Of a DNA stretch of 6,945 bases, positions 1-6,945 are shown piece after piece. Position 1 is the stretch's first letter. Every line of letters begins with the position of its first letter. The notes under the pieces were generated by a model. The model was given only the letters and a program-made list of their open reading frames with translations, was not told where the DNA came from and did no database searches. Source of the DNA: a virus; the IMG/VR virus record IMGVR_UViG_3300030361_000047, positions 1 through 6,945 of that record, one strand, 5' to 3'. The position numbers and the translations under genes are program-made.

Positions 1-127
1 TGTTCCCGTTTTAGTAGACGCATATAAATCGAAAACTTTTTTCGGTACATAATTAAAATATTTGACTGTACCTTGACTTGATTGGCTTGTTCCTCTGCTA
101 TCTGCACCATGTTCCACCGTTTTATAG
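1..127. repeat. Terminal redundancy copy A (identical to 6819-6945); circular-assembly overlap or junction of tandem copies
   Basis: Base-by-base comparison shows 1-127 equals 6819-6945 with no mismatch. The repeat is bounded only by the window ends. Confidence 0.95.
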
Positions 128-639
128 AATCGCCATAAATTTAGGTTGTAATGTCGTATGGCTACTTTTGCCATATCACGCATTTCAGACCTGACTTTTG
201 TTATTGACGTAGTTGTAAAAACAAAATCCCATGAATAATGTCGCTGCATATCCCAAGCAACATGTATATCATCAGGGATTTCACCTTGCCTTTTATCACT
301 ACCTGAATAATTAGAAAGTTCCTGTAAATCTTTTTCTCGCCAAGCTGGCTTAAAAATTCTTTGAACTTCGTCTATTACAAAAAACGCACCATCTGGTGCC
401 CAATGAAAAAAGCGAGCTAACTTATCTCTGCCTTGCTGAATTTCGGTATCAACAAAAATAACTTTAAAATCTTTATGTACATGTTTCTTGCCTAATACCT
501 TAATAGCATTATCACGAGAGAAACCACGCACATTTGTAACTAGCGTTCTGCCGGTTTTAATCAGCGGTATAATATCGTCCTTGATTGCGCCAGATGTTTT
601 ATATGTTCCGTCTGGACCATGATGTATCTTAATTCCCAT
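1..639 (-). CDS. zot: Zot / pI-family phage assembly NTPase, N-terminal 213 codons (cytoplasmic P-loop domain); continues at 6818 on the closed circle
   Basis: ATG at 639-637 lies 4 nt after the pVI-like stop. Hand translation gives MGIKIHHGPDGTYKTSGAIKDDIIPLIKTGRTLVTNVRGF...FFVIDEVQRIF... The N-terminus closely resembles CTXphi Zot as remembered (MSIFIHHGAPGSYKTSGAL...), including the deviant Walker A GxxGxYKT and the Walker B hhhhDE (FFVIDE). The frame is open to base 1, and 639 nt is exactly 213 codons. Confidence 0.9.
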   Translation of the reverse strand, partial: MGIKIHHGPDGTYKTSGAIKDDIIPLIKTGRTLVTNVRGFSRDNAIKVLGKKHVHKDFKVIFVDTEIQQGRDKLARFFHWAPDGAFFVIDEVQRIFKPAWREKDLQELSNYSGSDKRQGEIPDDIHVAWDMQRHYSWDFVFTTTSITKVRSEMRDMAKVAIRHYNLNLWRFYKTVEHGADSRGTSQSSQGTVKYFNYVPKKVFDLYASTKTGT

Positions 640-643
640 ATGA

Positions 644-961
644 TCACATTCCTAACATTCGCATAACAAAGCGAGTCGCTGCCGCATTCAATATTAAGTT
701 GATACCCTCAACGACATTAAAAAAATAAAGATTTTGCTGAACTTGTGCAGGAAGAATCGAAAGCGCTGATTGAATCTCAGCTGTTATGTCTAACTGTTGA
801 ATAATAGAGCTGGCTATATCCCAAGCAAAAACAAGTGATGAAAGTTCAAGCTGTAGCTTAAAGACTGTTAGCTTAATTAAAACCCAAGCGACTAAATCAA
901 CAAAAAACTGATATATACCTGAGTCTAAAAAAGCGAGTACGTCATTAAAAAATTCAATCAT
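644..961 (-). CDS. Minor coat / assembly membrane protein, pVI / Ace-like (105 aa)
   Basis: The ORF sits between the pIII-like and zot genes, which is the canonical pVI slot. It is hydrophobic. Its C-terminal ILPAQ...LYFF...LNAAATRFVMRMLGM resembles the end of CTXphi Ace as remembered (...MLPPQ...LFFL...LQALMTRFALRAL..). An AGAGGG Shine-Dalgarno lies 7 nt upstream, and the start overlaps the pIII stop (ATGATTGA). Confidence 0.75.
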   Translation of the reverse strand: MIEFFNDVLAFLDSGIYQFFVDLVAWVLIKLTVFKLQLELSSLVFAWDIASSIIQQLDITAEIQSALSILPAQVQQNLYFFNVVEGINLILNAAATRFVMRMLGM

Positions 962-2321
962 TAGTACGCCCTCTTAACACTATAAAACCAGCTAAAACGG
1001 TAAAGATAAAAAGAACAGCATTAGCTAGAATTTTCATTTCGTCCTCAAATTCTGTTGTACAAGCTTGTTTCTTACTTCCATTGATTGTTGCTATGTCATA
1101 ACAAGCTGAAAAACTACCAGCGCTATTCGAAAGATTACCAATCAAAGTTTTAGCATCGGTCTTAATTTCTTCGTACTTTTGTTGTAATTGCTGTTCTGCA
1201 TCTTCGACTTCTGCATTGGCGGAATCCATATCGAATGAACCCTTATCGACTCGCGTTAACGGTTTAGTCATTTCATCTTTGATTTGGTCGAGTCGCTGCT
1301 CAACACCAGACAAATCAATTTCAACAGTTACATCACCAGAAGAACCTGAGCCAGTAGAGGTATCATTGTCATATACAGGGTCATCCTGTCCATCACCATC
1401 TGAATCAAGATCATCTTCGTTTTTAATGCCATCACCATCAATATCAGGGTCGTTGTAATCTGGTAATCCATCAGAATCAGTGTCGGTGTCGTAACATAGA
1501 AATTGGTCATTAACATAACCACATTGGGCATTAGATGGATTACATGTAGATATTGAACCACCGTCTAATGTTGAATTAGTTGAATTACATAATTGTTGTG
1601 GGTCTGCTGTGCATATAAGTAGCCCGCCATTATCAACACAGCCTTGTTGTGGCGTAGAACCTAAAGGTGAATTATTAGTTACATCGGGCTTGGGTTCTGA
1701 ATAACAATCACCCTCTAAATCCATTTCGTAGACTTGAGTACCATTTATATCAACTGCATTGTATTCACAAATAGAACCATCTGATTGAGTTGAGCAAACA
1801 TTAGATTCTGTTACTTGAACATTAAGTAAGGTATTACCTGATGATACGTTACAAGAATCTACAAGTTGTATCTGCGATGAATCTGCGCACTTCTCTATTT
1901 CGCCAGTGTAACTATCAAATACGGAATAATCATATTGGGGTGTATTATCAGGGGGGCATTTTTTGTATTGTTGAGGTGCATAGGTCAATGAAGCACCGCG
2001 GGTATAATGATTTTGATTGTTATCACCCCACCATGCCTCACATGTCCAGCTATAACCACCACCACCGGTGACCAAATCCTCTGTATGGACAACGTCTGTT
2101 GCTGTTCGATTTGAGCCGTCATATGTTTTACATATTGAATCAAAATCAGTATTCAAAACCTGACCAATCATTTCTGGAAAGGTTGAAGAAGTGACGTAAT
2201 TTGTTGTCGCGATATCAGGCGGCACAGTCTCAACTGTTCCATCCTGAAAGATATTCGCTTTAGTATTCAGTGATAAAAAAGGCGCTGAAATTAGCGCCAT
2301 TATTATAATTAATCTAGTCAT
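954..2321 (-). CDS. pIII-like adsorption / minor coat protein (455 aa from ATG 2321)
   Basis: It is the largest structural ORF and lies in the pIII slot. From ATG 2321 the N-terminus is a classic signal peptide, MTRLIIIMALISAPFLSLNTKA|NIF. The mature part has 16 Cys, three DxDxDGxxDxxD repeats, a Ser/Gly linker, a coiled-coil-like segment and a C-terminal TM anchor plus basic tail (ILANAVLFIFTVLAGFIVLRGR). The ORF-track extension to 2375 uses TTG and adds a non-signal-like leader. Confidence 0.8.
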   Translation of the reverse strand: MTRLIIIMALISAPFLSLNTKANIFQDGTVETVPPDIATTNYVTSSTFPEMIGQVLNTDFDSICKTYDGSNRTATDVVHTEDLVTGGGGYSWTCEAWWGDNNQNHYTRGASLTYAPQQYKKCPPDNTPQYDYSVFDSYTGEIEKCADSSQIQLVDSCNVSSGNTLLNVQVTESNVCSTQSDGSICEYNAVDINGTQVYEMDLEGDCYSEPKPDVTNNSPLGSTPQQGCVDNGGLLICTADPQQLCNSTNSTLDGGSISTCNPSNAQCGYVNDQFLCYDTDTDSDGLPDYNDPDIDGDGIKNEDDLDSDGDGQDDPVYDNDTSTGSGSSGDVTVEIDLSGVEQRLDQIKDEMTKPLTRVDKGSFDMDSANAEVEDAEQQLQQKYEEIKTDAKTLIGNLSNSAGSFSACYDIATINGSKKQACTTEFEDEMKILANAVLFIFTVLAGFIVLRGRTND

Positions 2322-2401
2322 TATCGAACCGTATAGAAACCAGTAACAATACCGATAATGAACGACACGCCACAAGCAGTGCCGTACATTAACGACAGCA
2401 T
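2321..2401 (-). CDS. 26-codon hydrophobic micro-ORF (MLSLMYGTACGVSFIIGIVTGFYTVR), candidate pVII/pIX-type minor virion protein
   Basis: Hand translation of the gap between pVIII and pIII. ATG at 2401 is 2 nt after the pVIII stop. Its stop overlaps the pIII start in a TAATG coupling motif (2323-2319). The product is a single TM-length hydrophobic segment. It falls below the ORF-track size cutoff. Confidence 0.5.
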   Translation of the reverse strand: MLSLMYGTACGVSFIIGIVTGFYTVR

Positions 2402-2403
2402 AA

Positions 2404-2616
2404 TTAAATCTTTTTAACGATGCCGATGATTAAACCAATAACAACAAGTGATGCCACTGTGCCAATAACATATTGACCAGTAGTTAACGCGTCAGACTCT
2501 GCTGCGGTAATTGCAGTTTGAACTGCTGTTGTATCTACAGCGTAAGCTACTGAACCAGCAACTGAAGCGCCAACTGTTGCAGCTGCTGCTGCTAATTTCT
2601 TTTTAAGTTTTAACAT
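2404..2616 (-). CDS. Major coat protein pVIII (70-aa precursor, about 44-aa mature)
   Basis: The signal peptide is MLKLKKKLAAAAATVGASVAGSVAYA|VD. The mature peptide has an acidic N-terminus (D, E, D), a hydrophobic core (YVIGTVASLVVIGLIIGIV) and a basic C-terminus (KKI). A strong AGGAAA Shine-Dalgarno lies 8 nt upstream. Confidence 0.9.
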   Translation of the reverse strand: MLKLKKKLAAAAATVGASVAGSVAYAVDTTAVQTAITAAESDALTTGQYVIGTVASLVVIGLIIGIVKKI

Positions 2617-2632
2617 TTTGCTATTTTCCTTT

Positions 2633-3055
2633 TTAACGGCGAATTTTATTTAACATTGCTAGAATCGCGCCGATTCCGAGCCCAGCAACAAACAACTTAA
2701 TTACACCCTCGATTCCTAAATCGTACATTTCAGAATCAAAGGAATTAGACTCCAAAGCAAATTCAGACTCAGCTTTTAACTTTGCGTACTCCTGAGCAGT
2801 CATAAGAATAACGCCAGTGCAACTATCTACTGTGCCAGCATCATCAGTTAAGCCTTGAAAGTTTGCTTGGTATGTTGTGTGGTAGTAAGAACCTCTATCT
2901 TGCCAACAGCTTGCTGCATCAGAGGTACTAGGGAATAACAAGTATAAAATAGCGAAAACAAGTACAATAGAAAGACGCTTGTATACGGTATTAAGTCGCT
3001 TATAGCGATTTAAGCGAGAGTAATCGTCTAACGTCATTAAATACCTGTTAGCCAT
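2633..3055 (-). CDS. Membrane protein with coat-protein topology (140 aa from ATG 3055; function unknown, possibly a minor virion or assembly protein)
   Basis: N-terminal basic region, then a hydrophobic segment ending in an SDA|AS-like cleavage site. This is followed by a ~70-aa region with 2 Cys, a C-terminal TM (VIKLFVAGLGIGAILAML) and a basic tail NKIRR. It lies between the ssb-sized ORF and pVIII. The start is uncertain: GTG 3061, ATG 3055 or ATG 3037. Confidence 0.6.
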   Translation of the reverse strand: MANRYLMTLDDYSRLNRYKRLNTVYKRLSIVLVFAILYLLFPSTSDAASCWQDRGSYYHTTYQANFQGLTDDAGTVDSCTGVILMTAQEYAKLKAESEFALESNSFDSEMYDLGIEGVIKLFVAGLGIGAILAMLNKIRR

Positions 3056-3060
3056 AATCA

Positions 3061-3351
3061 CTACTTACTAAAACCATTAATAGTCATGGTCAAAACGTTC
3101 TTTTTAACCGACGTATTAACATCGCACAAAACCACACCCGGAACTTTGCCAGAGGATGCAATTTCGCGTGCTAATTGATTGTTGTTTTCAGTATTAATCT
3201 GAACTTTAGCGACCTGTTGACCGCAGTCTATACGGTCATTCTCAATATGATTAGCAATGTTTTCATCAAGAACCAAAGCACTTGCGTATAACATGCCACC
3301 ATCATCGAGCTTACCAGCGCTTATGCGAGTAATGTTCAAAGGTGTTTTCAT
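3061..3351 (-). CDS. 96-aa soluble protein, putative ssDNA-binding protein (pV analogue) by size and position only
   Basis: It is the first ORF after the strong promoter. An AGGA Shine-Dalgarno lies 7 nt upstream of ATG 3351. It has no TM segment, and its stop overlaps the next ORF. I recognise no sequence motif, so the functional call is positional. Confidence 0.45.
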   Translation of the reverse strand: MKTPLNITRISAGKLDDGGMLYASALVLDENIANHIENDRIDCGQQVAKVQINTENNNQLAREIASSGKVPGVVLCDVNTSVKKNVLTMTINGFSK

Positions 3352-3370
3352 TTTGTTTTTCCTGTGTCAG

Positions 3371-3460
3371 TGTTTCAATGTTTCGTTTGAAGTATACGTT
3401 TCATTGTTTCAAAATGTCAATGTTTGAAATTTTAATAAGGGTTTATAATTGACTGAAACA
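3371..3460. promoter_or_regulatory. Operator-like array of (T/C)GTTT(C/G)A repeats in the divergent control region; includes a plus-strand TATAAT at 3444-3449
   Basis: Copies are TGTTTCAA 3371-3378 and 3405-3412 (exact), TGTTTCGT 3379-3386, GTTTGAA 3385-3391, CGTTTCAT 3397-3404, TGTTTGAA 3421-3428, and an inverted TGAAACA at 3454-3460. CAATGTTT recurs at 3376 and 3418, 42 bp apart. The repeats overlap the -35 and -10 of the minus-strand promoter. The plus-strand -10 is perfect but I see no good -35 at 16-18 bp. Confidence 0.55.
3391..3420 (-). promoter_or_regulatory. Sigma70-type promoter for the structural operon
   Basis: On the minus strand, -35 is TTGACA (3420-3415, perfect), followed by an 18-nt spacer and -10 TATACT (3396-3391). 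It sits about 40 nt upstream of the ATG at 3351. Confidence 0.65.
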
Positions 3461-3487
3461 CAAAATGACGATGTACAGCAGGACATT

Positions 3488-3676
3488 ATGAGTAAAACTA
3501 AAACTGTCAGAATGGCGCACGATGATGCATTTATTGTTGAACAAGCAGTAAGAGAACTGGCAGCTGAACTGCAAATGGAAATTAAAGTAAGTGAGTTATT
3601 AAAGGAGTTGACACACTATGTGCCAGAGGCAAAGGAAAAACTTAAAGCTAAAATTGAATCAACTAGCAGCAAGTAA
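3488..3676 (+). CDS. Small plus-strand regulator (62 aa from ATG 3488), putative ribbon-helix-helix-type repressor
   Basis: This is the only plus-strand gene and it is divergent from the structural operon. AGGA lies 4 nt upstream of ATG 3488. The pattern KTVRMA (strand), DDAFIVEQAVRELAAEL (helix), SELLKELTHYV (helix) and a Lys-rich tail fits an RHH. The TTG start at 3449 would lie inside the TATAAT -10, so it is unlikely. A hairpin terminator follows. Confidence 0.55.
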   Translation: MSKTKTVRMAHDDAFIVEQAVRELAAELQMEIKVSELLKELTHYVPEAKEKLKAKIESTSSK

Positions 3677-3724
3677 GAACATAAGTTACAGACGGTTAAA
3701 AAAACGTCTACAACAATAATTTAA

Positions 3725-3749
3725 GGGGCTAAGTAGCCCCTATTTTTTT
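3725..3749 (+). terminator. Rho-independent terminator for the plus-strand regulator, overlapping the rep stop codon (possibly bidirectional)
   Basis: GGGGCT (3725-3730), loop AAGT, AGCCCC (3735-3740), then TA and T7 (3743-3749). On the minus strand the same stem is preceded by A7 and followed by a weaker T-rich tract. Confidence 0.7.
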
Positions 3750-5291
3750 ATTAAGATCACATGCAAATTCAACCAATTCAGAATTGTTAAATTCAAATTC
3801 TTTTAAATATTTTTGTCTTTCGTAATTGGCAAGTGCTCTATCAAAAGGATTTAAAGAATTAACTTTCATCAAATCAATATCTGATTTTATAGGTTCATGA
3901 TATTTAACTGTACTAACGCTAGATACCAATGAACCGTCTTGGTCTGCTCCAGTTCTTGAGGTCATTACTTCTAAATATTCCTCTTTTGTTAAAATTGAAT
4001 CAGAAGAGAAATAATTAGCTAACGCTTCAAGTCCACCTCTGGAGACTAAATCAAGAACTAAAGCACGTGCATTTCTTTTTAGAATAATATCCCATTCTTC
4101 AATGGATAAATGACAAAGCAAGTCAGCAGTTGCAACTTCTTCATTGACAATTTCTTCATCGGTTTTTTGATGCCCGAGACCAAATAAATCACGTAAACCG
4201 CGAGACCATTTAAGCAAGGTTTTACCTTTCAGCGCCCTAGCGTATTCTAAAAATAATGCTTTGTATTTCTTATCACCAGTAGCGCTATATTGTTCTAGTA
4301 TTTGCCAAGGTGTTAAACTGCCGCCCTGAGTTTTCAAGTGTCCTTTTGTCATTTCATCAGCCATATCCCAAGTAATCTTATCCCCAGAAATTGTGGATAA
4401 AATTTCTTCATCAGAGCCATATTTTGTAATGTACTCTCCTGCTTTTTCACCGTTACGAATATCTAGCCCGTAATGATTAGGACGGCTTAAACCTGACTTT
4501 GTTGAGCAAGACAACCAACGGTTAAAAATCCATTGGTAATCATCACTATCTTTTTCAGTAGGTAGTGGTGTTTTAGAAAAAACTAAAATGTGAAAATGTG
4601 GATGCCAACCGTTCTTACCATGCTTGATTTCAAAAGAACGAATATTGCCAGCAATACCATATTTCTCCTTAAAACGCTTTGCAGGTGAACCACGCCAAAA
4701 GCGTTGAAGTGCATCAGACTGTTTAGGCACTAAATCATAAATAGAATCGCTCGCTTGATGCGAACTGGTGAAAGTAACTAAGTTGACATAATAGCCTTTA
4801 GCTAACCACTGATTGAAAGCAACACGCATTTCATTAGCTTTACGCTCTGAAATTTTAGCCGCACAAATTGGACATGTTTTAGCATCGGCGCACTGGGCCA
4901 AACCGCGATAAAAGAATTTATTATTATCTGATTTAACAATTTCAGGCGTATTAGCAATACGAAAGCGATTACAAGTACAGGTTCTATGATGGACTTCATA
5001 ACCTTTTACGTTAATACGTGGCGTATCATCGAAGTTATAAAGAATATTTCTTGATATATCTTGAAGCTTAAAGCGTTGAGCTCTCGCTTGAGAAATAGCA
5101 TCTTGCTCTGAGACCTTACCAAGACTGACAAATTCACCAGTTTCATAGTCGATGAATTGAAAGGGGGTTCGTAACTCCGTAGCATTACCAAGAGCGCTTA
5201 CGCGCTTGTCGCTGCGCGCACGTTTGTGCTCGCTTCGCGCTTTCGTAGCGCCTTCACCTTGATTTAGTTGCTGAGTATTATTATTATTCAT
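3729..5291 (-). CDS. Rolling-circle replication initiator (HUH endonuclease, pC194/phiX-like motif set), 520 aa
   Basis: Motif 1-like is YVNLVTFTSSH (res 168-178). The HUH motif is GWHPHFHILVF (HFH at nt 4590-4598). The active-site Tyr motif is GEYITKYGSDEE (res 285-296), which resembles the ExxKY of pC194-family Reps. A CxC...C..CxxC putative zinc ribbon lies at res 105-143. It sits immediately downstream of the large intergenic region, as gII does in Ff. Confidence 0.85.
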   Translation of the reverse strand: MNNNNTQQLNQGEGATKARSEHKRARSDKRVSALGNATELRTPFQFIDYETGEFVSLGKVSEQDAISQARAQRFKLQDISRNILYNFDDTPRINVKGYEVHHRTCTCNRFRIANTPEIVKSDNNKFFYRGLAQCADAKTCPICAAKISERKANEMRVAFNQWLAKGYYVNLVTFTSSHQASDSIYDLVPKQSDALQRFWRGSPAKRFKEKYGIAGNIRSFEIKHGKNGWHPHFHILVFSKTPLPTEKDSDDYQWIFNRWLSCSTKSGLSRPNHYGLDIRNGEKAGEYITKYGSDEEILSTISGDKITWDMADEMTKGHLKTQGGSLTPWQILEQYSATGDKKYKALFLEYARALKGKTLLKWSRGLRDLFGLGHQKTDEEIVNEEVATADLLCHLSIEEWDIILKRNARALVLDLVSRGGLEALANYFSSDSILTKEEYLEVMTSRTGADQDGSLVSSVSTVKYHEPIKSDIDLMKVNSLNPFDRALANYERQKYLKEFEFNNSELVEFACDLNKKIGAT

Positions 5292-5321
5292 CTTGTCTGC
5301 TATTTTGGTCTTGGTCGATTA

Positions 5322-5382
5322 ACTTAGAAAGACTTAGAAAAAGCTCATTACTTGGCGGTGATGAGCTTTTTTGCTTTCTAAG
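5322..5382. other. Perfect 11-bp-stem hairpin (5338-5348 / 5361-5371, 12-nt loop) flanked by ACTTAGAAA x2 (5322-5330, 5332-5340) and an inverted TTTCTAAG (5375-5382); candidate terminator and/or replication-origin core
   Basis: AAAAAGCTCAT / ATGAGCTTTTT are exact reverse complements. A-run and T-run flanks give terminator geometry on both strands. The direct repeats have 10-bp phasing. It lies 30-90 nt upstream of the rep ATG. Confidence 0.6.
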
Positions 5383-5423
5383 CTTTTTACTTTATTTCAT
5401 TTACTAAACTTTTGCTACCGTGT

Positions 5424-5457
5424 GGAATCTCTTCGTTGATGGTCACGAACAAATTCC
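5424..5457. other. Imperfect hairpin in the intergenic region (GGAAT-ctc-TTCGT loop8 ACGAA-caa-ATTCC)
   Basis: Two 5-bp stems are separated by a symmetric 3-nt internal loop. It may belong to the ori or packaging-signal structures typical of inovirus intergenic regions. Confidence 0.35.
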
Positions 5458-5507
5458 GATAAAAAGTTTTCAACTCTAACGAGTCTGCAACTTTTCTATC
5501 GGGTTTA

Positions 5508-5678
5508 CTAATTAATTAAACTCATTTCTTTCATAATGAAAACAGTTAAAAAAACCCAACAAGTAAAAACTAAAGTTACGTGTAATGCTTTTGTATAAAA
5601 ATATTTATCTGTTAGTTTTGGTTTAGGTAGGAAACCTAGATAAACAGATAAAAAAAAGTAAGCAAAAATCAAGAGCAT
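5508..5678 (-). CDS. Possible 56-aa two-TM membrane protein (MLLIFAYFFLSVYLGFLPKPKLTDKYFYTKALHVTLVFTCWVFLTVFIMKEMSLIN)
   Basis: Hand translation gives an ATG at 5678, 10 nt after the upstream stop, on the same strand as the operon, with two hydrophobic helices. The frame is open for 57 codons despite AT-rich DNA. Against it, there is no clear Shine-Dalgarno, and it overlaps an imperfect long hairpin (5604-5652) that could instead be structural DNA. Confidence 0.35.
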   Translation of the reverse strand: MLLIFAYFFLSVYLGFLPKPKLTDKYFYTKALHVTLVFTCWVFLTVFIMKEMSLIN

Positions 5679-5688
5679 ATTGTAACCA

Positions 5689-6195
5689 TTAGGAATCTAA
5701 AAAAAGATTTCTACAAACTAGACAGGCTTTTATTTCTTCAATTGATTTTTTGCCAATCAAACGAGTTTTCAATAAATCTAATTCGGAATAATTTAGTAAC
5801 TCAGATAGCTTTGTTATGCCTATATCGTGTAAACAGTTAACAGTTTTAACACTCAATTCTAAGTTATGTAAATCAATATCATCTTGTTGATAGTGAGATG
5901 GTAAGTCATTCTCAGATATCGAATATGGAGACTCTTCACTCTCTAGGTATTCATCGACAAAATAAGATATTTGGTCTTTTATGATCTTGTCTTGTTTAAG
6001 CAAAGAAAGAAGAAGTTTTAAATTAACCTCAAGTTCAGTAACTTTTTGTTCAGCGTTTTCTAGCTGAGAACAAACGTGGGGATAATGCATTATTATGTTT
6101 CGGACTGTCTTAGCAGAAGTACCTATGCCATGAACCCGCTTAACTGAATCTATTATCGAATCTAATTGACCGTTGGTTTCAAATTTAATTAACAT
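5689..6195 (-). CDS. 168-aa cargo protein: N-terminal small DNA-binding-like module + coiled coil + acidic linker + C-terminal RNA polymerase alpha-subunit CTD-like (helix-hairpin-helix) domain
   Basis: Residues 110-159 (HNLELSVKTVNCLHDIGITKLSELLNYSELDLLKTRLIGKKSIEEIKACL) align without gaps to E. coli RpoA 258-307 ([50 protein letters not shown], from memory). The N-terminus LIKFET...VKRVHGIGTSAKTVRNIIMHY is RHH- or HTH-like. Residues 44-80 look heptad-like. AAGGT lies 7 nt upstream of the ATG. Confidence 0.75.
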   Translation of the reverse strand: MLIKFETNGQLDSIIDSVKRVHGIGTSAKTVRNIIMHYPHVCSQLENAEQKVTELEVNLKLLLSLLKQDKIIKDQISYFVDEYLESEESPYSISENDLPSHYQQDDIDLHNLELSVKTVNCLHDIGITKLSELLNYSELDLLKTRLIGKKSIEEIKACLVCRNLFLDS

Positions 6196-6200
6196 AATTA

Positions 6201-6300
6201 GTACCTTTTTAGTTGTGCCTGGTTAAATATAAGATAAGTTAATGGTACCTTTTTATGATGCCTGGCACAAGTATTTTTTGTATTTTCGGTACCTTTTTTT
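6201..6300. repeat. Three direct repeats of GTACCTTTTT at exactly 44-bp spacing (6201, 6245, 6289); the first two extend to GTACCTTTTTA-N3/4-TGCCTGG
   Basis: Read directly: 6201-6222 gtacctttttagttgtgcctgg, 6245-6265 gtacctttttatgatgcctgg, 6289-6300 gtaccttttttt. They fill the zot-to-ORF168 intergenic spacer. Confidence 0.85.
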
Positions 6301-6302
6301 GA

Positions 6303-6945
6303 TTATGTTGATTTGTCCTGGTATTCATTTTGGTACTGTTCACGTTTAAAAGAACAAAATGCATATTGCTGATATTCTTTATATTGTATTAACGCCTTGC
6401 AGCTGGTGATCCATTTAACAGAATAGCCTAAGTCCTTTAAATCATAACTAGCAATCTGAAACTGACCAGCGTCAAAAATATAGGTTTTTTCCTTTTGTGA
6501 CCAAAGGGAGCCAACAATTTGAAGCTTAGGAAAAGACGGAATATCTAAAGCACTGCTTTGATAAGCGTTGATGTTAACAACATCATTGCTAACAGCATTA
6601 TTAACCTGAGTATTACTAGTTTCATTAATAGTTTCACTAGGCTGATTAGCTTTTTCATCGGTTTTTTGCATAGCTTTAAGACTCGAAGAACTAGAGCCCC
6701 CGATTGCACTAGGAGCTGGTTTACTAAGAACATAAGACCAGATAAGCACAAGTAAAGATAAAAGACCGACAACTTTTGGATCTTTGTAAAAAGCTGTTCG
6801 TGGGTTAGTATTTTGGAATGTTCCCGTTTTAGTAGACGCATATAAATCGAAAACTTTTTTCGGTACATAATTAAAATATTTGACTGTACCTTGACTTGAT
6901 TGGCTTGTTCCTCTGCTATCTGCACCATGTTCCACCGTTTTATAG
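6303..6945 (-). CDS. zot: Zot / pI-family assembly protein, C-terminal part (TM segment + periplasmic domain); 6819-6945 duplicates 1-127
   Basis: The frame is continuous with 1-639 across the circle junction: 639 + 516 nt = 1155 nt = 384 aa + stop. The sequence VEHGADSRGTSQSSQGTVKYFNYVPKK is present in both copies. There is a single TM (VVGLLSLLVLIWSYVLS) followed by a ~135-aa Ser/Asn/Gln-rich C-terminal domain, which is the topology of pI/Zot. Confidence 0.9.
   Translation of the reverse strand, partial: YKTVEHGADSRGTSQSSQGTVKYFNYVPKKVFDLYASTKTGTFQNTNPRTAFYKDPKVVGLLSLLVLIWSYVLSKPAPSAIGGSSSSSLKAMQKTDEKANQPSETINETSNTQVNNAVSNDVVNINAYQSSALDIPSFPKLQIVGSLWSQKEKTYIFDAGQFQIASYDLKDLGYSVKWITSCKALIQYKEYQQYAFCSFKREQYQNEYQDKST
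6819..6945. repeat. Terminal redundancy copy B (identical to 1-127)
   Basis: Same comparison as copy A. Confidence 0.95.

Follow-up and report, generated by a model that had tools for sequence, protein, structure and literature searches.

ORF168, a 168-residue open reading frame (ORF) on the minus strand of a virus DNA (IMG/VR record IMGVR_UViG_3300030361_000047, positions 1 to 6,945; this whole stretch of 6,945 nt is referred to as the window), encodes a chimeric protein that ends in a C-terminal domain (CTD) of the RNA polymerase (RNAP) alpha subunit. On balance, the protein is probably an operator-anchored phage transcription regulator that carries tethered alpha-CTDs. Sequence comparison assigns its first ~65 residues to a family of small inovirus proteins, defined here and named S1, and the remainder appears to derive from rpoA.

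The window covers the complete genome of a filamentous phage, which is circular. A 127-nt direct repeat (1-127 = 6819-6945) is an assembly overlap, so that the circle comprises 6,818 nt, and features in 1-127 are duplicates because the window ends overlap. The circle was also assembled independently in the datasets ERZ27296239, ERZ27296234, ERZ27296235 and SRR5439181. The ORF168 protein is intact and identical across four independently assembled contigs; contig L003 differs from the window at one nucleotide. The gene is organised as follows.

5689-6195, minus strand: ORF168, chimeric gene of 168 aa (S1-family N-terminal module, then RpoA-derived helix, linker and alpha-CTD), stop codon TAA at 5689-5691
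6001-6195, minus strand: S1-homologous module, residues 1-65, with a beta-alpha-alpha pattern, like that of ribbon-helix-helix (RHH) proteins, at 1-38 and heptads at 45-66
5938-5994, minus strand: helix at residues 68-86 that aligns collinearly with the final helix of the RpoA N-terminal domain (NTD), from rpoA profiles and a shuffle test
5887-5937, minus strand: residues 87-103, acidic disordered linker at the position of the alpha interdomain linker, with an AlphaFold2 (AF2) predicted local distance difference test (pLDDT) value below 50
5692-5886, minus strand: alpha-CTD, residues 104-168, helix-hairpin-helix fold, ending at the equivalent of E. coli residue 316, with R265 replaced by K and N294 by L

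The C-terminal domain is a genuine alpha-CTD

The C-terminal domain of ORF168 is a bona fide alpha-CTD. Residues 103-159 match the Pfam family RNA_pol_A_CTD (PF03118; E = 3.1e-16), and the score of 59.3 bits exceeds the gathering cut-off of 23.8. An earlier note on this DNA, made from its letters, had expected the match over residues ~105-165 and had placed residues 105-164 at nt 5704-5883, which agrees with the coordinates of the ORF. In a phmmer search of PDB sequences, RNAP alpha subunits accounted for 52 of 56 rows and the four non-alpha rows had E >= 0.1; the best match was the B. subtilis alpha subunit (2.2e-10), and that of E. coli scored 9.4e-7. Direct, ungapped alignment of E. coli RpoA 260-307 with ORF168 112-159 gives 22 identities in 48 positions, the count that the note had given. 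The E. coli reference behind it is correct: RpoA residues 220-329 as used here agree exactly with PDB chain 10ma_G. The alignment also reproduces the equal spacing of 27 residues from Cys to Gly in the two proteins, the retention of E261 and the reading of the TEVELLKT segment as SELDLLKT.

The positions of the DNA-binding (265) determinant of E. coli (L262, R265, N268, C269, G296, K298 and S299) read L, K, N, C, G, K and S in ORF168, as had been noted. The determinant is not fully kept: six of these seven positions are identical, R265 is replaced by K, and the N294 position is occupied by L. Further departures are H and N at the positions of D258 and D259, and the lack of equivalents of R317 and L318, which belong to the 287 determinant.

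With an alignment of ten sequences (alpha-CTD homologues) as input, AF2 gives a model whose pLDDT is 88-91 over residues 110-168; the single-sequence prediction reaches a pLDDT of 37. Superposition of the model on known alpha-CTDs with Foldseek, a comparison that the earlier note had proposed, yields root-mean-square deviations of 0.8-1.2 Å over 59-66 residues (1z3e_B, 3n97_B, 1lb2_B and 4mex_B). The target TM-scores are 0.76-0.88 (1z3e_B, 3n97_B and 1lb2_B), for a model that is itself derived from an alpha-CTD homologue alignment.

No alpha-NTD is present, as the earlier note had stated: neither PF01193 nor PF01000 matches ORF168, and a hidden Markov model (HMM) built from ten alpha subunits, hereafter the RpoA HMM, gives ~3 bits on residues 1-66. 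With the RpoA equivalog model TIGR02027 the score is 57.7 bits, below the cut-off of 227.8, and the alignment is confined to residues 67-166. Because the alpha-NTD is absent, ORF168 is not able to assemble into RNAP.

An RpoA-derived helix and linker precede the alpha-CTD

The similarity to RpoA starts upstream of the CTD. Alignments with the NCBIfam rpoA models and with the RpoA HMM begin at residues 67-70, and the RpoA HMM alignment continues through the linker 87-103. Residues 60-103 raise the RpoA HMM score by 6.7 bits, a gain matched by 1-2 of 2000 shuffles of the segment. The stretch from residue 68 to 168 resembles what the 3' third of an rpoA gene encodes, comprising the last alpha-NTD helix, the interdomain linker and the CTD. 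The earlier note had described a CTD tethered by an acidic linker and a heptad-like coiled coil to a ~45-aa N-terminal module. A disordered tether to a helical N-terminal part is borne out; the coiled coil and linker are, however, not wholly a separate invention, since residues 68-103 appear to be RpoA's own helix and linker. The similarity could not be extended further upstream: residues 1-66 were considered as an alpha-NTD remnant and this was rejected, the three registers being mutually inconsistent and all at ~3 bits or less (phmmer, 7-58 to B. subtilis 54-102; RpoA HMM, 39-62 to 62-85; and MAFFT).

The N-terminal module belongs to a resident phage family

S1 proteins are ~90 aa long (86-93 aa) and are encoded directly upstream of the replication gene rep in related inoviruses, which were found through Rep and through protein searches. 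The S1 genes are listed by contig.

L005:316-585, S1 gene
L006:4082-4363, S1 gene
L007:5355-5618, S1 gene
L008:1099-1368, S1 gene
L131:6358-6639, S1 gene
L132:598-858, S1 gene

An S1 HMM made from four S1 proteins scores 18.4 bits on ORF168, a value reached by none of 3000 shuffles (shuffle maximum 10.8). Among 4597 ORFs, ORF168 is the top match that is not a family member (E = 0.0018; the next has 0.85). The hhalign comparison of ORF168 with S1 gives P = 9.3e-5, and the two align collinearly from Met1 as far as column 61. None of the six Rep-identified relatives has the alpha-derived 3' part. Gene content thus viewed indicates that the 5' part of ORF168 is the resident gene of the slot before rep and that only the alpha-derived 3' part was acquired. 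The earlier note had regarded the gene as accessory cargo placed after zot in the manner of ctxAB; the position after zot and the acquisition of the alpha part agree with this, but the first ~65 residues belong to a family that resides in the slot.

By inspection, residues 1-38 follow a strand, helix, G-T-S turn, helix order, a pattern that to the eye resembles the RHH fold; the AF2 monomer model has low confidence at residues 1-27. A clean heptad pattern occupies residues 45-66, and a PDB profile search with the C-terminal halves of the S1 proteins (columns 38-82) matches coiled coils only. Of the earlier proposal of a separate DNA-binding module of RHH or helix-turn-helix (HTH) type, the separate module stands, with comparative evidence for DNA binding given below; the RHH/HTH assignment is supported by no profile.

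Phased GGTACY arrays accompany S1 genes

The start of ORF168 lies 107 nt past the stop codon of zot. The intervening spacer and the 3' end of zot hold a phased series of operator-like cores, given here in coding-strand letters.

6196-6302, minus strand: zot-ORF168 spacer, with cores 1-3, two CCAGG motifs and A-tracts
6200-6205: core 1, GGTACT, after A5, overlapping the Shine-Dalgarno sequence and ending 4 nt before the ATG
6244-6249: core 2, GGTACC, after TAAAAA
6288-6293: core 3, GGTACC, after A7
6332-6337: core 4, AGTACC, within the 3' end of zot, keeping the exact 44-nt register

Three exact copies of GTACCTTTTT start at 6201, 6245 and 6289, and the genome contains no other copy. Three CCAGG motifs alternate with the cores, the third at 6317-6321 in the zot 3' end, and tracts of A5-A7 abut three of the four cores. 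On the coding strand, the 140 nt upstream of ORF168 consist of 48% A and 22% T. At least three cores in a chain arose in none of 5000 shuffled versions of the window.

The association of such arrays with S1 is established by comparison across genomes: GGTAC(C/T) arrays of 3-5 cores at 41-44 nt spacing stand beside the S1 gene or operon in seven of seven S1 genomes including the window, and are absent in all three relatives that lack S1 (L009, L010 and L021). The arrays track S1 and not ORF75, a small conserved ORF near rep, because ORF75 is present in all relatives. Given this co-occurrence, the 6196-6302 repeats, to which the earlier note had already drawn attention as possible binding sites, are most likely operators of the S1 module. 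In three relatives with S1 alone, a strong sigma70-like promoter (10-11 of 12 consensus positions) lies within the array, between the last two GGTACY cores.

L006 3690-3717, array promoter
L007 5297-5325, array promoter
L008 1038-1065, array promoter

Here the end of the -10 hexamer lies 1 nt ahead of the last core, and the penultimate core has its centre near -45. The layout is typical of an autoregulated promoter and suggests that S1 may both contact RNAP and autorepress. A second array in L008, of three cores, lies at 4202-4290 directly after rep.

A sister alpha-CTD in a second inovirus

A HMMER search of 1.84 billion cluster representatives identified P0050 as the protein with the closest CTD, 55-58% identical over the domain. 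It is encoded on the 6-kb inovirus contig L021 in the same slot between zot and rep. L021 differs from the window in its Rep (Phage_CRI) and ssDNA (single-stranded DNA)-binding protein. Towards its N-terminus P0050 has no relationship to S1 and is instead homologous to another family of the slot, S2 of L009 and L010 (14.2 bits, reached by none of 3000 shuffles). P0050 also lacks the homology to the last RpoA helix seen in ORF168 residues 68-86. Its CTD shares with ORF168 the Lys at the R265 position, found in only these two of 48 phage alpha-CTDs; its K298 position is I, and DLLKT is retained. Between the two CTDs the ratio of nonsynonymous to synonymous substitution rates (dN/dS) is ~0.27, with synonymous sites near saturation, which indicates purifying selection. 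The shared CTD, the different partners and this ratio together imply that one alpha-CTD lineage has been kept under selection and joined to two resident proteins. Both inoviral alpha-CTD genes are preceded by spacers with an unusually high A content and with A5-A7 tracts. A close-relative scan of IMG/VR found no further inoviral alpha-CTD genes.

The two phages also share a non-coding element downstream of the alpha-CTD gene.

5404-5502, minus strand, in the window; 1294-1391 in L021: conserved non-coding element, 99 nt, 83% identical

This element is the best-conserved DNA between the window and L021, above any shared coding DNA, and is absent from L005-L010. Its 5' part can form a ~16-bp imperfect hairpin as ssDNA, and the intergenic region before rep is, as a whole, strongly structured as ssDNA (z = -6.0 and -5.6). 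The role of the element may be that of a packaging signal or of an origin for the minus strand. Two other interpretations were discarded. As an attP core shared with host chromosomes, it gave 30 IMG/VR matches to a 16-mer that mostly extend only 16-19 nt, which is at chance level, and a 24-base pattern from the element matched none of 185,579 genomes. A small ORF inside it has no start codon, and its frame is broken in L021. Twenty-two exact bases of the element, TTTTATCGGAATTTGTTCGTGA, recur in L108 (968-989) and L113 (935-956), two small IMG/VR contigs without inovirus genes, with additional resemblance to the L021 version; either chance or a common site could explain it.

Alpha-CTD proteins outside RpoA in other phages and metagenomes

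A scan of IMG/VR with the alpha-CTD alignment found at least 63 viral contigs (L023-L085) that encode alpha-CTD proteins, none of them true RpoA (for example L023:5395-6192 and L033:5317-6210). The contigs are of tailed-phage type in appearance, and none of them carries a Zot related to the search seeds. Forty-eight proteins were scanned with Pfam: 43 from the 63 contigs, ORF168 and four from the protein searches. Sigma70_r4 is the partner in 19/48 and Sigma70_r4_2 in nine; several have Cro/CI-type (HTH_3) or other HTH domains. Within the alpha-CTDs, N268 and C269 are kept in 48/48, R265 and K/R298 each in 46/48, G296 in 43/48 and S299 in 41/48; V287 is variable. The BFVD database lists similarly annotated proteins of tailed phages, such as A0A2P1JY10 of Rhodococcus phage Finch, A0A5Q2WLP1 of Mycobacterium phage Mithril and others from uncultured Caudovirales. 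Judged by domain content, a DNA-binding module followed by an alpha-CTD appears to be a recurrent phage design.

A metagenome scan for inoviral alpha-CTD genes returned only ~90-aa ORFs consisting of an alpha-CTD and one multi-repeat protein. The former (~90-100 aa, on contigs L116-L126, which have no inovirus markers) share 46-52% identity with the inovirus CTDs. Up to 11 alpha-CTDs in tandem occur in a set of metagenomic proteins, including P0002 (1031 aa), P0003, P0006, others and L125:2703-5660, that rank above true RpoAs as matches of ORF168. The contig of P0101 (26 kb, JGI 3300075153) encodes a 166-aa protein with an unassigned N-terminus and an alpha-CTD amid small phage-like genes; its neighbours include HNH, ParB_N and an Acb2/Tad1-type anti-defence hairpin protein, and the surroundings resemble a tailed-phage early region.

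Proposed mechanism

In the proposed mechanism, the S1 module and coiled coil would bind DNA and dimerise, recognising the phased GGTAC(C/T) array (with CCWGG) whose four cores span 6200-6337. The rpoA 3' fragment would have taken the place of the regulator's C-terminal coil, such that the operator-anchored dimer displays two alpha-CTDs on ~17-residue tethers, in the topology of the alpha2 dimer of RNAP. The tethered alpha-CTDs might then bind the A-tracts that abut the cores, through the minor groove as at UP-element subsites. Alternatively, they might take the position and contacts (sigma region 4, activators) of RNAP's own alpha-CTD. Either event would alter transcription of ORF168, of the small downstream ORF56 and possibly of rep, in a direction that cannot be read from the sequence.

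Several observations weigh against this mechanism. The one line of evidence for DNA binding by the S1 module is the co-occurrence of gene and repeats, and no DNA-binding fold is assigned to it: Pfam at E <= 10 gives no match to residues 1-44 or 1-85, residues 1-66 bear no credible likeness to any PDB sequence, and no RHH protein is among the PDB matches of the single sequence or of the S1 profile. The replacement of R265, the key minor-groove residue, by K, that of N294 by L and, in the sister protein, that of K298 by I may weaken binding of the classical UP type. No sigma70-type promoter was detected in the window's own spacer, where the hexamers beside the cores read TAAAAA. The fusion is carried by only two inoviruses among those surveyed, and a search for the host with the Rep profile over genome contigs gave no match.

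A wider and more tentative proposal, which we regard as possible without expecting it to hold, is that phage alpha-CTDs tethered to site-specific DNA-binding modules (S1, S2, sigma region 4, Cro/CI-type HTH) form a widespread, unrecognised class of 'pseudo-alpha' factors. Such factors would place an alpha-CTD at a chosen DNA site. In that position it would either supply the alpha-CTD, sigma4 and UP contacts that bring in RNAP independently of host activators, or stand in the way of RNAP's own alpha-CTDs. The inovirus protein would be a minimal example of the class, with its operators identified.

Alternative functions

The earlier note had raised the possibility of a decoy that titrates class I activators such as CRP or competes for UP elements, and so reprograms host transcription in chronic infection. 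As a global decoy, the dimer would act mostly away from phage DNA, and its targets could include sigma region 4 and the UP elements of host promoters such as those of rRNA. The putative architecture mirrors alpha2 in its dimer, flexible linkers and two CTDs; E261 and most residues of the 265 and 287 determinants are retained, the CTD appears to be under purifying selection, and alpha-CTD proteins other than RpoA occur in many phages. We nevertheless consider such a decoy unlikely. The N-terminal half appears to be a site-specific module with adjoining operator arrays, which favours local action, and the substitutions R265 to K and N294 to L alter the residues most important for UP binding. In addition, D258/D259 are H/N and R317 and L318 are missing. 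Where the 46 other phage alpha-CTD proteins have a recognisable partner, it is a DNA-binding domain, and the literature search lent the decoy no support. With a site-specific N-terminal module and determinant residues missing or altered, the decoy is less economical than an operator-anchored regulator.

It is more doubtful still that the anchored alpha-CTD serves as an activator trap, docking host factors (activators, Spx-like proteins or the late activators of other phages) to or away from the phage genome and perhaps excluding competing phages. The 285-292 segment is well conserved, the sister protein keeping DLLKT, and the combination of relaxed DNA-contact residues with overall purifying selection suggests a preserved protein contact. 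On the other hand, V287 varies among phage alpha-CTDs, the 287 determinant lacks its C-terminal part, and the proposal is purely inferential.

We give very little credence to interference with RNAP assembly, in which the helix of residues 68-86, resembling helix H3, would pair with host alpha monomers and disturb the formation of alpha2 or RNAP. The segment is collinear with the last alpha-NTD helix, which belongs to the alpha dimerisation domain; however, it is one short helix with the rest of the alpha-NTD absent, and such interference is not the conserved function because P0050 lacks the helix homology. A neutral or decaying chimera, an accidental fusion with a functionless alpha-CTD, is suggested by the rarity of the fusion and by the R265 and N294 substitutions, but is similarly hard to credit when the structural core residues are all intact, the domain scores 59 bits with a confidently predicted fold, dN/dS is ~0.27 despite near-saturated synonymous sites, and the CTD lineage is retained in two phages with different replication modules.

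Comparison with known systems

The alpha-CTD is a hub for UP elements and for most class I activators that recruit bacterial RNAP, and phages are known to modify or bind the host alpha-CTD. To join a phage-borne alpha-CTD to a module that binds operators would be another strategy of transcription control, distinct from these. Compared with the RpoA CTD (~250-329), ORF168 has the same fold and family, a flexible linker and the last alpha-NTD helix, and keeps N268, C269, G296, K298, S299, E261 and LLKT; it differs in lacking an alpha-NTD, in the changes R265 to K, N294 to L and D258/D259 to H/N, in ending at 316 and in its fusion to a phage module. The tailed-phage proteins likewise have a C-terminal alpha-CTD behind a variable, often DNA-binding N-terminal part; unlike ORF168 they keep R265 (46/46), and their N-terminal domains are different.

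The S1 proteins resemble ORF168 over residues 1 to ~65, in the slot before rep and in the adjoining phased GGTACY/CCWGG arrays. In contrast to ORF168, they are 86-93 aa long with a C-terminal coiled coil of their own and no alpha part, and their arrays straddle a sigma70-like promoter. RHH repressors such as Arc, CopG and omega form dimers of dimers on tandem or palindromic repeats. ORF168 is like them in its small size, in the order beta, helix, G-x-S/T turn, helix (residues 2-38) and in short palindromic cores (GGTACC, CCWGG) set in phased arrays; the likeness is by inspection, and no RHH profile or solved structure matches ORF168. Its position after zot, where the block of morphogenesis genes ends, and before the intergenic region and rep is like that of ctxAB in CTXphi and of other inovirus genes that follow zot. 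In contrast to ctxAB, its 5' half is a resident phage gene and not a foreign cassette, and its product is of a transcription type and not a secreted toxin.

A literature search for phage or inovirus alpha-CTD proteins, including fusions to sigma-70 region 4, found none, in accord with the earlier note, which knew of no described inovirus function of this kind. As far as we found, the combination of domains, the candidate operators and the recurrence across phages are undescribed; the components, an alpha-CTD and small repressor-like regulators, are of known kinds. The system is tractable, with a 6.8-kb circle, four phased candidate operators beside the gene, natural S1 versions without the CTD and a second phage with another partner. 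Its mechanism, once worked out, could explain a whole class of uncharacterised phage regulators.

Genome organisation and minor features

The phage has a GC content of 36.5%, and all core genes are on the minus strand of the window. After rep and ORF75 follow, in order, a putative ssDNA-binding protein, coat, pIII-like and Ace-like DUF2523 proteins, and then Zot. Other features around ORF168 are as follows.

3729-5291, minus strand: rep, Rep_1-type replication protein
3449-3676, plus strand: ORF75, small conserved ORF between rep and the ssDNA-binding gene
Spanning the window ends (junction), minus strand: zot, 384-aa Zot, stop codon at 6303-6305
5508-5678, minus strand: ORF56, small hydrophobic ORF of 56 aa with two hydrophobic segments, 10 nt downstream of the ORF168 stop

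The nearest cultured relatives are distant, Zot being 30-37% identical to those of Pseudomonas Pf and Vibrio CTXphi, and Rep 29-35% identical to that of Pseudomonas phage PMBT54. ORF56, which sits between the alpha-CTD gene and the conserved 99-nt element, is possibly co-transcribed with ORF168; no homologue was found in any relative or library searched. ORF75 shows 45-69% identity among the relatives, all of which retain it, including L021. It has no Pfam match, displays a strand-helix-helix pattern by eye and is probably the phage's core regulator.

Two candidate sites in and around the zot-ORF168 spacer were rejected. A dif/XerCD attP site formed by inverted arms like TTATGTTAATT (6187-6197 and 6303-6313) has 10 matches where 8.9 are expected and no XerC arm; a pC194-type nick site, CTTATCTTATAT at 6227-6238, is expected at chance level and is not kept in relatives. 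An Rfam scan of the whole window revealed no RNA family, and the sole match in a PADLOC scan was to the alpha-CTD-like segment of PglW (E = 0.003). Finally, an inverted repeat at 5338-5371, AAAAAGCTCATTAC / GTGATGAGCTTTTT, has 14 bp, 93% complementarity and A/T runs on both sides. A consensus scanner made no call there; the repeat looks like a bidirectional terminator that closes the long structural operon before rep.

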